Notes: a model not told the origin generated them from the letters alone. 64,000 nucleotides of DNA from an uncultured Gammaproteobacteria bacterium (GCA_963773065.1 CAVYZN010000014.1:136476-200475), one strand, 5' to 3'. Counted from the stretch's first letter, positions 10,521 through 59,864 are shown. Translations and numbers: made by a program.

Positions 10521-12218
10521 GTGCCAAAACAAAAAACCGGGCAACGAACCAAAACAAGGGCGGACAACCGGCGCCAACCTGGGATCTCGCCGATAGGGAC
10601 CGAGGCGAGGGCCGCAGGCCAGGGAGGGTCTGATCGCGGACTGAGGCCAAGCTCTGGGCCGCCGCCGACGCGCTGCGCAACAACATGGACGCGGCCGAGT
10701 ACAAGCACGTCGTCCTGGGTCTGATCTTTCTCAAGTACATCTCCGACGCCTTCGAGGCCAAGCACGCCGAGCTGGAAGCCCAGAAGGCGCAGGGCGCCGA
10801 CCCCGAGGACCCCGATGAGTACCGCGCCGCCAGCATCTTCTGGGTGCCGAAGGAGGCGCGCTGGCAGCACCTCAAGGCCAGCGCCCCGCAGCCCACCATC
10901 GGCACGCTGGTGGACGACGCGATGACCGCCATCGAGCGCGACAACCCCTCGCTCAAGGGCGTGCTGCCCAAGGACTACGCCCGCCCCGGCCTCGACAAGC
11001 AGCGCCTCGGCCAGCTCATCAACCTGGTGAGCGACATCGCGCTGGGCGCACCGGCCGACCGCGCCAAGGACACCCTCGGCCGCGTCTACGAATACTTCCT
11101 CGCGCAGTTCGCCAGCGCCGAGGGCAAGAAGGGCGGCCAGTTCTACACGCCCTCGCGCGTGGTGCGCGTGCTGGTCGAGATGCTCGCGCCCGGCACTGCT
11201 GGAAAGGGGGGCCGCGTCTACGACCCCTGCTGCGGCTCGGGCGGCATGTTCGTCAGCAGCGAGAAGTTCATCGAGGCCCACAGCGGCAAGATCGGCGACA
11301 TCTCCATCTACGGCCAGGAGTCCAACTACACCACCTGGCGCCTGGCCAAGATGAACCTCGCCATCCGCGGCATCGACGCGCAGATCGCCCACGGCGACAC
11401 CTTCCACAACCACAAGCACCCCGACCTCAAGGCCGACTACGTGCTCGCCAACCCGCCCTTCAACGACAGCGACTGGCGCGGCGAGCTGCTCAAGGACGAC
11501 AAACGCTGGGTCTACGGCGTGCCGCCCGCGGGCAACGCCAACTACGCCTGGGTGCAACACTTCATCTACCACCTCGCGCCCACCGGCCTCGCCGGCTTCG
11601 TGCTCGCCAACGGCTCGATGTCGTCCAACCAGTCGGGCGAGGGCGAGATCCGCAAGCCATCATCGAGGCCGACCTGGTGGACTGCATGGTCGCGCTGCCC
11701 GGCCAGCTCTTCTACTCCACGCAGATCCCGGTCTGCCTCTGGTTCCTCGCGCGCGACAAATCCGGTCATTCCCGCGCAAGCCGACGGGACTGACAAGCGC
11801 AGCGGGGTCTGTCCCGCGTTTCGCGACCGCCGCGGCGAGACTCTCTTCATCGACGCCCGCAAACTGGGCACGATGGTGGACCGCACCCACCGCGAACTGA
11901 CCGACGACGACCTCGCCAAGATCGCCGGCACCTACCACGCCTGGCGCGGCAGACGAACGGGTCGCCCGAGCGCCGACGTATGCGGACATCCCCGGCTTCT
12001 GTAAATCTGCAACCCTCGACGACATCCGCAAGCACGGCCACGTGCTCACGCCCGGCCGTTACGTCGGCGCGGAGGCCGCCGAAGATGACGGCGAGCCGTT
12101 CGAGGAGAAGATGAAGCGGCTCACCGCGACGCTGCGCGAGCAGCAGGCCGAGTCCTCGAAGCTCGATGCCGCCATCGCCACGAACCTGCGCGAACTTGGC
12201 TTTTGGAAAGACACGTGA
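10521..12218 (+). CDS. hsdM: Type I R-M methyltransferase HsdM (frameshifted in this sequence; carries repeat-derived insertions)
   Basis: [51 protein letters not shown], and the C-terminus [10 protein letters not shown]...[10 protein letters not shown]...NLRELGF in shifted frames. Indels near 10585-10642, 11657, 11760 and 11950. Confidence 0.92.
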
Positions 12219-12432
12219 TGACGCCGGAAGAGATGCAGCGCCTTGTCGCCAGCGGTGAAACTTTAACCGTCGAGTTCAAGGGCGAGGAACGATCACCGCT
12301 CAACGACCGGGAATTGGTCGAAGCGGTGGTTTGTCTCGCCAACCGCACCGGCACCGAGCCCGCATGGCTGATCGTCGGCGTCGAAGACGACGGGCGCGTC
12401 ACCGGCGCGCGCCCTCGGCACGGCAACGCAAC
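12218..12432 (+). pseudogene. AlbA_2 (Schlafen-like) domain protein, truncated by IS3
   Basis: GETLTVEFKGE...VVCLANR...LIVGVEDDGRVTG. The ATG overlaps the hsdM stop (TGATG). The rest of the gene is not found after the IS. Confidence 0.8.
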
Positions 12433-12479
12433 TGAACCGCCCCGGGTTTACCGGAGACTCCATTTCTTGAGAGGATGGG

Positions 12480-12803
12480 GTGATGAACACGTCAAAGAAA
12501 TATTCACCGGAAGTTCGGGAGCGTGCGGTGCGGCTGGTGATTGAGCACCAGGGTGAGCACGCGTCCCAGTGGGCGGCGATCGGTTCGATCGCGGGCAAGA
12601 TGGGCTGCACGGCGGAGACCTTGCGTAAATGGGTGCGCCAGGCAGAGCGCAATCAAGGGCAGCGTGGCGGTTTGACCAGTTCGGAGCGGGAACGGGTCAA
12701 AGAGCTGGAGCGCGAGAACCGTGAGCTCAGGCGGGCCAATGAGATCTTGCGCAAGGCGGCGGCTTTTTTCGCCCAGGCGGAACTCGACCGCCGAGCGAAG
12801 TGA
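12480..12803 (+). CDS. IS3 transposase OrfA
   Basis: [15 protein letters not shown]...[12 protein letters not shown]...[22 protein letters not shown]. Confidence 0.93.
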
Positions 12804-56774: not shown

Positions 56775-57013
56775 GCGTGTTCATTAGTTAGTGAAATCAT
56801 GATTACCATGGAATCGCATCTTGCAGGCATGGCGGTCACGACATAACATGACGCCGCAGAGTGTAGGAGCGGACGTGTAGCGGGCCGGCGACGGTTACGG
56901 GCATGCACACGACTTCGGTTTCGGGACGGCAATCCCCTCGTAGCCGGGTTAGCGGAAACGCATCCTGCGCGCCTATCGGCGCGCGGAATATTCGTTATTG
57001 GGAGTCAGACCTT

Positions 57014-59754
57014 ATGAGCAAGGAGCAGGAACGGCTTCAGGAAGCGCGTGAAAAGTCGCTCCCATGGAAAAAGTGGGGGCCCTACCTGAGCGAGCGGCAA
57101 TGGGGCACGGTGCGCGAGGACTACAGCGACAACGGCGACGCCTGGAACTATTTCACGCACGATCAGGCGCGCTCGCGCGCCTATCATTGGGGCGAGGACG
57201 GACTGGGCGGCATCTGCGACGACCATCAGATCCTGTGTTTTGCGCCGGCGCTGTGGAACGGCAAGGATCCGATCCTGAAAGAACGCTTGTTCGGGCTCGC
57301 CAACAGCGAGGGCAACCACGGGGAAGACGTCAAGGAGTATTACTTCTACCTCGACTCGACGCCGACCCATTCGTACATGAAATATCTGTATAAGTATCCG
57401 CAGACCGCGTTCCCTTACAGCGATCTGGTGGAGACAAATCGCCGGCGCGGTCGACACGAACCCGAATACGAGCTTCTCGATACCGGCGTATTCGATGCGG
57501 ATCGCTACTTCGATGTCTTCGTGGAATACGCGAAGGCGGCGCCCGAGGATATGCTGATCAAGATCACCGTCTGCAACCGCGGCCCCGCGGCGGCCACCCT
57601 GCATGTTCTCCCCACGCTGTGGTTCCGCAACACCTGGTCGTGGGCGGGGGGCGGCTCGAAGCCGGTGCTGAAAAAGACACGGCGCCAAGGGCCATGCCGT
57701 CATCCACGCCCACCACACCGATCCGCTGTTTCAGGAATCCCTGGAGGACTACCTCCTCTACTGTGAGGGCGAGGCGCCGCTCCTGTTCACGGAGAACGAG
57801 ACCAACAACGCCCGCCTCTTTGGAACGGCGAACGCCTCGCCCTACGTGAAGGATGGCATCAACAATTTCGTTGTTCATGGTGATACGCGGGCGGTGAACC
57901 CGGCCCAGGAAGGAACGAAGGCGGCGGCTCATTACCAGATCAACGTCGGTGCCGGCGAAGCGCACGTCATCCGCTTGCGCCTGATACGCGCGACGCCGAA
58001 GGCGCCGGCCAAGCCGTTCGGCGACTTCGATGCGGTCTTCGAGACGCGGCGCAAGGAGGCCGACGAGTTCTATGCCGCGGTCATGCCCGCCGCGGTCAAG
58101 ACGGACGAGGACCGCGCCAGGGTGATGCGCCAGGCGCTCGCCGGCATGCTGTGGTCCAAGCAGTACTTTTACTACGACCTGGACACATGGTTGGCTGAAC
58201 ACGGCGCCGGGTCGGCGGTACCGGTCGCGCAGCGCCGCCGGGTGCGCAATGCCGAGTGGCCCCACATGTTCAACGACGACATCATCTCGATGCCGGACAA
58301 GTGGGAGTATCCCTGGTACGCCGCCTGGGATCTGGCCTTCCACACGATCGCGTTCATGATCGTCGATGGCGACTTCGCCAAGGAACAGCTCGATCTGATG
58401 CTGCGCAACGACTACCTGCACCCGAACGGGCAGATTCCGGCCTACGAGTGGAACTTCGGTGACGTCAATCCGCCCGTGCACGCGTATGCGACGATACAGA
58501 ACTATCTGTCCGATAAGGCGCGTCATGAGGGAAAAGGCGATATCGAGTTCCTCAAGTACGCCTTCTCCAAGCTGCTGGTGAACTTCACGTGGTGGGTCAA
58601 CCGCAAGGACCGGGCCGGCAACAATTGCTTCGAAGGCGGCTTCCTCGGCCTCGACAACATCGGCGTGTTCGACCGCTCGGCGCCCTTGCCGACCGGCGGC
58701 TACCTCGACCAGGCGGACGGCACGGCATGGATGGTCTTCTTCAGTCAACAGATGCTGCGTATTTCCGTCGAACTCGCCCTGCATGACCCGCTCTACGAGG
58801 AGTATCGTCGAGAAGTTCTTTATGCACACCCTCTACATCGCCGGCGCCATGGATCGGCTGGGCGACAGCAAAAACGAGATGTGGGACGAGGAAGACGGCT
58901 TCTTCTACGACGTCCTGCGCCTGCCCGACGGCTCGGCCACGCGCCTCAAGGTTCGCTCGATGGTGGGCCTGTTGCCGCTGGCGGCGGTGGCGGTATTCGA
59001 AGAGGACATACTCGACAGGATGCCACGGGTGCGGGAACGGATGCGCGCCTTCATCCGCCGCCACCCCGAATTGTGCGCCGGCATCCACATGCCGACCCAG
59101 CCGGGCGTCGCCAACCGCCGGATGCTGTCGATCGTCGACGAGCACAAGCTCCGCCGCATCCTGGCGCGCATGCTGGACGAGAACGAGTTCTTCGGCCCCT
59201 ACGGCATTCGCGCACTCTCCCGCTACCACCGGGAGCATCCTTTCGTCTTCCGCGTCGGCGGACAGGAGTACCGGGTGGCGTACCTGCCCGGCGATTCCGA
59301 CTCGGGCATGTTCGGCGGCAACTCCAACTGGCGCGGCCCGGTGTGGATGCCGGTCAACTTCCTGCTCTTGACCGCGCTGTATCGCCTGTACGCCTACTTC
59401 GGCGACGACTTCAAGGTCGAATGCCCGACCGGCTCCGGGCACATGATGACGCTACTCGAAGTCGCCCATGAGCTCGGCGAGCGGTTGACCCGCACATTCC
59501 TGCGCGGCGCCGACGGCCGGCGTCCCGTGTACGGCGCCGCCAGGAAATTCCAGGACGATCCCCACTGGCGGGACCTGGTGCTGTTCTACGAGTACTTCCA
59601 CGGCGACAGCGGCGCGGGCATCGGCGCCAGCCACCAGACCGGCTGGACGGGGTGCATCGCCCGGGTCATTCAGGCCAACGCCGTGCTGACCAGGAAGATC
59701 CTTCTGGCCCCGGACGCCGAGGCCTTGGTGCAGAAGAAGCTGCAAGCGCAATGA
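57014..59754 (+). CDS. GH63/MGH1-like glycoside hydrolase (indels near 57680 and 58805)
   Basis: [55 protein letters not shown]...GASHQTGWT. Confidence 0.92.
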
Positions 59755-59814
59755 CCCTCTCTTGCCCGGCCTTCAAACCGCGGGGCGATGTTTCGGCATC
59801 GCGGTCGCTGGGTC

Positions 59815-59864
59815 GATGTACAAGGAAGTACAAGTGTCGCGAGAGGCAGGAAGCCGGGAGCGAC
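59815..59864 (+). repeat. Twin-GGA-hairpin mini-element, intergenic copy
   Basis: TGTAC-AAGGAA-GTACA...GTCGC GAGA GGC-AGGAA-GCC GGGA GCGAC; same layout as 37707-37755. Confidence 0.7.

Follow-up and report, generated by a model that had tools for sequence, protein, structure and literature searches.

Two related families of very small two-hairpin elements, probably mobile, in an uncultured gammaproteobacterium

What are the short repeats, each built of two hairpins with GGA in the loops, that occur in and between the genes of an uncultured gammaproteobacterium and inside one another, and do they move as DNA or serve as binding sites on RNA? The question is raised by a 64,000-nt stretch of assembly GCA_963773065.1 (CAVYZN010000014.1:136476-200475, or G000:C14:136476-200475 in our numbering), hereafter the window, for which a preliminary description had proposed six copies of a single mobile mini-element that spreads double sites for the regulator CsrA/RsmA. 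The assembly comprises 3.84 Mb in 33 contigs with ~60% G+C and is 91% complete and 6% contaminated; its closest named records are uncultured Gammaproteobacteria metagenome-assembled genomes (MAGs), with no more than 82% DNA identity over 3.3 kb. The window copies probably represent two related families of very small, non-autonomous insertion elements that are mobile. These elements insert at the DNA level with a fixed length, and the system is real, mobile and apparently undescribed.

Five of the six proposed copies have close relatives on other contigs (blastn-short against the 3.84-Mb genome); in particular, the copy at 37707 is 96.8% identical over 63 nt to C5:41311, the one at 21524 is 92% identical over 50 nt to C11:223021, and the one at 59815 shares 88.7% identity over 53 nt with copies on C8 and C9. 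These five are genuine members, but the sixth, a supposed degenerate copy at 10585..10642 (+), is not: it has no BLAST relative, no match at E<=10 (filters off) to either of the covariance models described below, and a fold no more stable than those of shuffled sequences (z-score of -0.43). Instead of the one shared family that had been assumed, the members fall into two model-defined families with subtypes, both consisting of two short hairpins with GGA-containing loops. Type 1 elements (47-48 nt) are laid out as CGAC, hairpin 1, a GGAGGTAG linker, hairpin 2 and CCGA. In the 50-53-nt family, hairpin 1 and a linker of 3-4 nt precede an outer stem, TCGC...GCGA, within which only hairpin 2 lies. 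The latter family includes at least three subtypes, denoted types 2, 2b and 3.

Iterated nhmmer searches identified 103 non-overlapping copies in the genome, including 45 of type 1, 41 of type 2, 7 of type 2b and 10 of type 3; a strict regular expression for the outer stem had found only 6 sites, and nhmmer and covariance models were used in its place. Two alignments were built, A1 from 40 full-length copies of types 2, 2b and 3 from this genome and A2 from 68 distinct type 1 copies (2 from the window and 66 from other genomes), yielding the covariance models R1 and R2, respectively. At E<=0.01, R1 matched 60 and R2 46 genomic copies (with only 150 candidates scored in each case, out of 2252 and 2706, respectively). 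Run without filters on the window, R1 matched 59811-59867 (+; 74.0 bits), 37703-37758 (+; 54.0 bits) and 37776-37833 (-; 50.6 bits), and R2 matched 21523-21576 (+; 74.4 bits) and 22038-22090 (-; 58.8 bits), the window copies having been among the sequences from which both models were built. The consensus lines of A1 and A2 show no inverted repeats at their ends.

The architecture anticipated from the window holds genome-wide. Throughout the 40 copies of A1, the loop GGAs lie 24-26 nt apart, and standard base pairs occupy 89.0% of the stem cells; the figure is 80.5% for shuffles and 20-44% with the partners slid. Both partners have changed in 60 cells, involving 8 of the 15 pairs, and the covariation score is reached by none of 500 shuffles. 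The outer TCGC/GCGA stem, which had been noted as RTCGC/GCGAY, is likewise present, with its closing pair switched from G-C to A-T in 7 of the 40 copies. The type 1 alignment gives the same picture, with 97.1% standard pairs versus 89.5% in shuffles and both partners altered in 63 cells (a score that none of 500 shuffles attains); because hairpin 1 lies outside the pattern by which the sequences were fetched, its covariation is an independent observation. Thus, the claim that the stems vary but stay paired is borne out in both families. In folding, the window copies at 59814, 37706 and 37777 yielded z-scores of -4.5, -3.3 and -5.3, and none of 200 shuffles was equally stable; the type 1 window copies are decayed (z of -1.0 at 21526 and -0.35 at 22041).

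One line of evidence for movement comes from an array behind the gene 37885-38760 (-). The array is inserted at the intrinsic-terminator hairpin and T-run of this gene (37829..37859, -), which shows below-threshold matches to ctRNA_p42d and STnc320 in a permissive Rfam search. Right behind the T-run begins the first unit (37777..37828, -) of two tandem type 3 elements. Unit 2 (37648..37776, -) is split by two nested elements, namely, a 50-nt type 2b copy (37706..37755, +) inserted in the opposite orientation between its two hairpins, and a 29-nt, internally deleted remnant of a 51-nt type 2 copy (37661..37689, -) located after CAGGGA in its second loop, which was recognised against an intact nested copy at C27:26983. 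The segment 37647-37776, previously read as an interrupted twin of unit 1, is therefore just that, unit 2 with two elements nested in it, and R1 gives a weak match to 37647-37706 (-; E 0.05).

When the array was aligned with its orthologue in a genome of the same genus (G004), flanks and terminator proved common to both, as did one nested type 2b copy, and the lengths differed at three places. In unit 1, G004 has an additional 51 nt directly behind the CAGGGA of the second loop; in unit 2, the first hairpin contains an additional 52 nt that run in the opposite orientation. Both stretches read as type 2 copies. The 29-nt remnant at 37661-37689 is present in the window and absent from G004. All three gaps (51, 52 and 29 nt) fall at element boundaries inside GGA loops. 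Two further genomes, G003 and G002, have kept the gene and the terminator and lack the array, but the adjacent DNA differs, so that they do not provide clean empty sites. Beside the array, the region 36980-37500 is AT-rich and has no long open reading frame (ORF) listed; within it, 37300-37395 is covered by metatranscriptome contigs from three studies (at high word depths, of 216, 3 and 35), which suggests a conserved, expressed small gene or RNA.

The second line of evidence is a decayed hsdR gene, encoding the R subunit of a type I restriction enzyme (20741..22030, +; taken from the ORF list and matching a PDB HsdR at E 1.6e-05). A 48-nt type 1 copy (21526..21573, +; hairpin 2 decayed) contributes 16 codons in frame, at TTTGA^GGATGAG, and both alignable full-length homologues (G033 and G031) have a gap of 16-17 residues exactly there; relatives' genes were used for this comparison, the PDB HsdR being too distant to position a 16-codon insertion. 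Beyond the element, the hsdR frame changes near 21790 and ends near 22030. At the frame end lies a 47-nt type 1 copy in the opposite orientation (22041..22087, -; hairpin 1 decayed), which interrupts a host repeat of the GGGAGA...GGGTTGGGTGAGGG type at GGGAGA^GGG and is linked to the 21535-21575 copy by 41-nt arms that are 90% complementary. Sequence resembling this host repeat (window 22020-22110) also harbors type 1 elements in many further genomes, among them L016, L032, L039, L052 and L115. The differences of 51, 52 and 29 nt from G004, together with the hsdR gap in both homologues, thus provide the contrast between filled and empty orthologous sites.

For three further loci, no clean empty site was obtained. 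The intact 51-nt type 2 copy in a convergent intergenic region (59814..59864, +), with relatives on C8, C9, C4 and C32, has an orthologous locus in G004 that ends in a different repeat at a contig end; the kinase linker around the copy at C16:93182 is too diverged; and the copy at C26:55327 sits within a larger repeat.

Nesting is not confined to the window. On five contigs of the genome, a type 1 element is inserted in the second loop of a type 2 element, at GGCA^GGATGCC, and the same combination occurs in at least three other MAGs, where the R1 matches extend over 99-105 nt. At C22:44520-44700, nesting is four levels deep and is accompanied by two further mini-inserts of ~42 and ~22 nt. The ~42-nt insert lies in the first loop of a type 1 element, at CACGG^ATG, and the ~22-nt one in a type 1 second hairpin; both (G000:C22:44565-44660, also L156, and G000:C28:7930-8020) recur on other contigs and in other genomes.

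Elements also lie within genes, and open frames run through the copies in a protein kinase and in two IS1634-like transposases. The two transposase paralogues carry type 1, antisense and in frame, at the same position (C11:223022-223069 and C27:39093-39139), and two identical IS21 istA-like genes each contain a 47-nt type 1 copy (C11:234104-234150 and C14:31518-31564). The copies inside the IS1634-like and IS21 genes imply that the elements can ride on larger insertion sequences. In a clpB-like gene (G000:C8:70923-71021), two tandem type 2 copies are followed by a frame that is no longer ClpB-like, reflecting either a frame change or an assembly error.

Copy numbers vary widely among relatives. 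R1 matched all 24 sampled genomes of the same family (7-57 copies each) and R2 matched 23 of the 24 (0-52 copies); among 16 genomes from other families of the class, the two models matched the same two. Outside this sample, the type 1 pattern returned at least 120 matches in named records, with those listed including Methylobacter, Methylococcaceae, Acidiferrobacterales, Ectothiorhodospiraceae, Sedimenticola, Thiohalomonas, Shewanella, Thalassotalea, Endozoicomonas, Lysobacteraceae, Rhodanobacteraceae, Pseudomonas and Mariprofundaceae. The carriers that can be cultured include Methylobacter tundripaludum SV96, Shewanella abyssi DSM 17171 and Thalassotalea mangrovi ZS-4. Across the orders represented among these matches, the type 1 sequence is nearly identical. 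Taken together, the nesting, the presence or absence of copies in G004, the hsdR insertion, the range of 0-57 copies among relatives and the lack of an adjoining mobiliser gene support the original proposal of a non-autonomous mobile mini-element.

The insertion junctions differ between the types. Among 108 type 1 copies with unique flanks in other genomes, A precedes CGAC at position -1 in 97, and CCG is followed by A in 100 and then by G in 94, with G or A next. The type 1 site is A^GRR, with a net gain of 48 nt. Given that A stands on both sides, the duplication amounts to at most 1 nt, and at the junction a 1-nt duplication is indistinguishable from a terminal A; tandem type 1 copies abut exactly. 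The 2-bp flanking duplications put forward as a general feature accordingly do not hold, with a possible TG...TG seen only at the 37706 copy. Of the 35 type 2 copies with a complete 5' end, 15 follow GGA, 6 are in tandem, 3 come after the far-side CCTA of a GGGATG^TAGG hairpin, and 4 after the TT of another host repeat, an unfilled copy of which is found at C17:85730. Eight of the 10 type 3 copies begin directly after a terminator T-run, and one other is the second unit of a tandem pair. Because the loops and linker of the elements themselves carry AGGA or AGGGA, the elements are each other's best targets, which accounts for the stacks up to four deep, the tandem arrays and the in-frame insertions.

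How do such elements move? They move as DNA, adding a fixed length to the target, with type 1 entering at A^GRR, the 50-53-nt type often just after GGA, and type 3 at the ends of terminator T-runs. In the mechanism that we propose, an enzyme supplied in trans would recognise the hairpins on single-stranded DNA, and the conserved GGA loops would be part of the element's own recognition and target logic, with CsrA binding as a possible by-product. By the nearest mechanistic analogy, this enzyme might tentatively be placed in the HUH/Y1 class, of the IS200/IS605 or REP-associated tyrosine transposase (RAYT) kind.

Several results weigh against this account. The genome encodes 10 Y1_Tnp matches, three IS200-type and several RAYT-like, and none of the 10 is flanked by elements within 3 kb on both sides. 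One match, the RAYT-like Y1 gene at G000:C17:85780-86560, lies 1 kb from an element copy, yet is bracketed by different inverted repeats of its own, GGGGTCAGTACCC and GGGTACTGACCCC, unrelated to the elements; and the three IS200-type genes have no element nearby. Relatives of seven of these Y1 proteins were sought at 120 type 1 loci in other genomes and found at none, in agreement with the earlier remark that no mobilising enzyme is visible in the window. The elements and RAYT do not consistently co-occur: with one RAYT-like protein as the query, matches were obtained in 16 of the 24 element-bearing family genomes, with 8 element-rich ones lacking it; of 14 genomes from other families that lack elements, 2 gave a match as well. 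None of 150 type 1 left ends was paired with a right end across a gene (0.3-4 kb). A single apparent autonomous parent proved to be two separate elements, one of a further subtype.

The remaining contrary points concern strand, structure and conservation. IS200/IS605 elements target the lagging strand, which would predict a replication-strand bias of orientation. By local GC skew, 53 copies have their GGA strand on the G-rich side and 42 on the other, in a 33-contig assembly in which genes themselves are only 57% co-oriented with the skew, so that this strand test does not favor single-strand transposition of the HUH/Y1 type. GU cells (24) and AC cells (17) are similarly frequent in the stems of A1, and the folding strand is therefore not marked. 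The rebuilt targets of type 1 have 4.95 cross pairs, compared to 4.53 +/- 0.23 for shuffled flank pairs. The flanks being no more complementary than shuffled pairs, the idea that type 1 targets hairpin loops as structures was dropped; the targets are not hairpin-like, which argues for site choice by sequence, and loops are struck because they contain AGGA. Finally, the near-identity of type 1 across orders could also stem from constraint that a conserved host factor imposes, CsrA for example.

This last point leads to the reading favored in the preliminary description, namely, that the elements are kept because they deliver double CsrA/RsmA sites, with a dimer bridging the two GGA loops and altering the translation or stability of the host RNA. 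The csrA gene is present in the carrier genome, as had been anticipated (89.9 bits). The consensus obtained by SELEX is RUACARGGAUGU, with GGA in a hairpin loop, and CsrA is described as bridging dual sites 10-63 nt apart (PMC7652899). The element loops have the features of such sites, with GGA in the loop of a short hairpin and a second site within that distance, the 24-26-nt spacing lying inside the published bridging range (PMC7652899). The full 12-mer occurs 6 times in the genome, compared to ~1 expected from base composition, with 5 of the 6 occurrences in elements, and 25 of the 49 genomic ACARGGAUGU matches fall in annotated elements. Retention of the loop GGAs while the stems covary, and the similarity of type 1 across orders, point the same way.

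Position and orientation, however, do not favor a selected CsrA-site function. Between co-directional genes, the GGA strand is sense in 27 copies and antisense in 33 (crude codon-usage gene calls, 3560 genes), and a cruder ORF count in other genomes gave 52 sense versus 42 antisense, clustered copies not being independent and the counts excluding only a strong bias. The remaining copies are distributed over divergent gaps (15), convergent gaps (15), genes (11, of which 8 sense and 3 antisense) and gene edges (2). The type 3 copies just past terminator T-runs can be expected to yield little transcript, and other copies lie in coding sequence, some of them antisense in transposase genes. Moreover, the GGA motifs are also the insertion targets, and this accounts for their conservation with no need for a role in RNA. 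A scan for promoters and terminators found no promoter-like site on the array strand and no terminator after the array. In three metatranscriptome runs, represented by contigs only, the share of the sampled words that was recovered did not exceed 0.10; a single contig, of 113 nt, matches 37690-37771 with unlike flanks and hence derives from another copy or organism. Sense-oriented, transcribed copies may plausibly bind CsrA incidentally, to judge from their sequence, but we consider it unlikely that the elements are maintained as spreaders of double sites.

The elements resemble CsrB/CsrC and RsmX/Y/Z in having GGA in short loops, in matching RUACARGGAUGU and in a spacing within 10-63 nt (PMC7652899), and differ from these RNAs in that the arrays are framed by neither promoter nor terminator, no Rfam match is found and their orientation relative to genes is random. 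A more ambitious view, to which we would give rather little credence, combines mobility and regulation: a pan-gammaproteobacterial system of 47-53-nt elements, in which an unrecognised enzyme reads GGA-loop hairpins both as ends and as target, and each jump adds or disrupts a CsrA double site, or CsrA or another GGA-hairpin binder aids maintenance. If so, the elements would continually supply the Csr/Rsm regulon with variation.

The possibility that these are ordinary REP/BIME-type repeats moved by a resident RAYT appears improbable, notwithstanding the several RAYT-like Y1 genes in the genome. Like the REP, BIME and REPIN sequences of Enterobacteria and Pseudomonas, the elements are short hairpin repeats, present in tens to hundreds of copies, with neither a transposase of their own nor classical inverted ends; they are mostly intergenic, often located at gene ends and in tandem arrays, and a GTAG tetranucleotide is found in type 3 and in the type 1 linker. 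Mobility of REP/BIME/REPIN sequences is thought to involve a Y1 HUH enzyme acting on single-stranded hairpins. In contrast to REPs, the elements are fixed-length units of two different hairpins that insert precisely, and fixed-length insertion in genes and in one another is atypical of that class. Furthermore, elements flank none of the RAYT genes, the inverted repeats beside the RAYT-like gene on C17 are different ones, and the query RAYT is missing from element-rich genomes and present in element-free ones, as detailed above. REP-RAYT pairs are lineage-specific and vertically inherited, whereas near-identical element copies span several orders.

Other small mobile elements offer partial parallels. 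The PATE-type miniatures of IS200/IS605 lack terminal inverted repeats and have subterminal hairpins, minimal target duplication and sequence-specific insertion, and the cyanobacterial SDR repeats are very small units nested in one another. The elements described here are unlike PATE-type and SDR repeats in sequence and host clade; moreover, no full-length insertion sequence shares their ends, and they show no replication-strand bias, in which they depart from the IS200/IS605 miniatures. Classical miniature transposable elements of the inverted-repeat kind (MITEs) differ in having terminal inverted repeats and a fixed-length target duplication, compared to at most 1 nt (A) repeated in type 1. 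Rickettsia palindromic elements (RPEs), of ~150 bp, insert in frame in protein genes and are read through as peptide (PMC10969869); the in-frame insertions in hsdR and in a protein kinase are similar, but the present elements are 47-53 nt long, mostly intergenic, nested in one another and found in free-living Gammaproteobacteria.

The TwoAYGGAY RNA motif (RF01731), listed by Weinberg et al. 2010 (PMC2864571), also consists of two consecutive hairpins with A-Y-GGA-Y-type loops, is multicopy and varies in copy number between strains; for Pseudomonadota, a 2026 preprint describes it as multicopy, variable and associated with repeats, and some variants as having additional AYGGAY hairpins (10.64898/2026.09.22.753630). 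That the elements are such a structured RNA, or Csr/Rsm sponge RNA genes, and not mobile DNA is highly improbable, their A-N-GGA-N loops (AUGGAU and AUGGAG in type 1 elsewhere) notwithstanding, given that no basal stem surrounds both hairpins in A1, A2 or the folds, the array has neither promoter nor terminator, copies lie within coding frames, the elements measure ~50 nt against the 168 positions of the RF01731 model, and insertion occurs at the DNA level. The searches agree: RF01731, Csr and Rsm models gave no match at E<=10 on 37560-37900 or 59750-59930, and no such family reached its gathering level in the window (43 bits for RF01731). Rfam yielded no match over the type 1 copy at 18 loci in other genomes, and a genome scan with RF01731 returned 0 matches at E<=1, although the control was also silent in all 14 genomes. 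At gathering and permissive thresholds alike, no Rfam family thus accounts for the elements. A literature search of main texts, with supplementary repeat catalogues outside its scope, found no published description of them.

A probably mobile system of this size has several implications. At ~50 nt, the elements are much shorter than the ~150-bp RPEs and the 190-235-bp MITEs named in a review of such sequences (PMC10969869). Identifying their mobiliser might uncover a DNA-insertion activity that is new and whose target is short and defined. The elements lengthen real genes by 16-17 codons and accumulate behind terminators. When CsrA targets or sponge RNAs are searched for, they raise the number of GGA hairpins counted, and they should therefore be masked or modeled. 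With loops that match the CsrA consensus perfectly, they also offer a natural test of whether mobile DNA rewires a global posttranscriptional regulon.

The window and other genomes contain a few additional repetitive or mobile features. An IS3-family element, with an ALIL frameshift pseudoknot (94.5 bits) at 12761-12877 (+), lies in the type I restriction-modification region between hsdM-like and hsdS-like sequences, with 41-nt arms at 12431-12471 and 13703-13743 that are 83% complementary. A 75-nt direct repeat (23535-23609 and 49494-49568, +; 87% identical) belongs to a different repeat or leader family, and its two copies each end just 5' of a long ORF (23610-25235 and 49581-51467). In a Pseudomonas MAG (L088), group II intron domains at 6351-7209 are located a few hundred bases from a type 1 copy.

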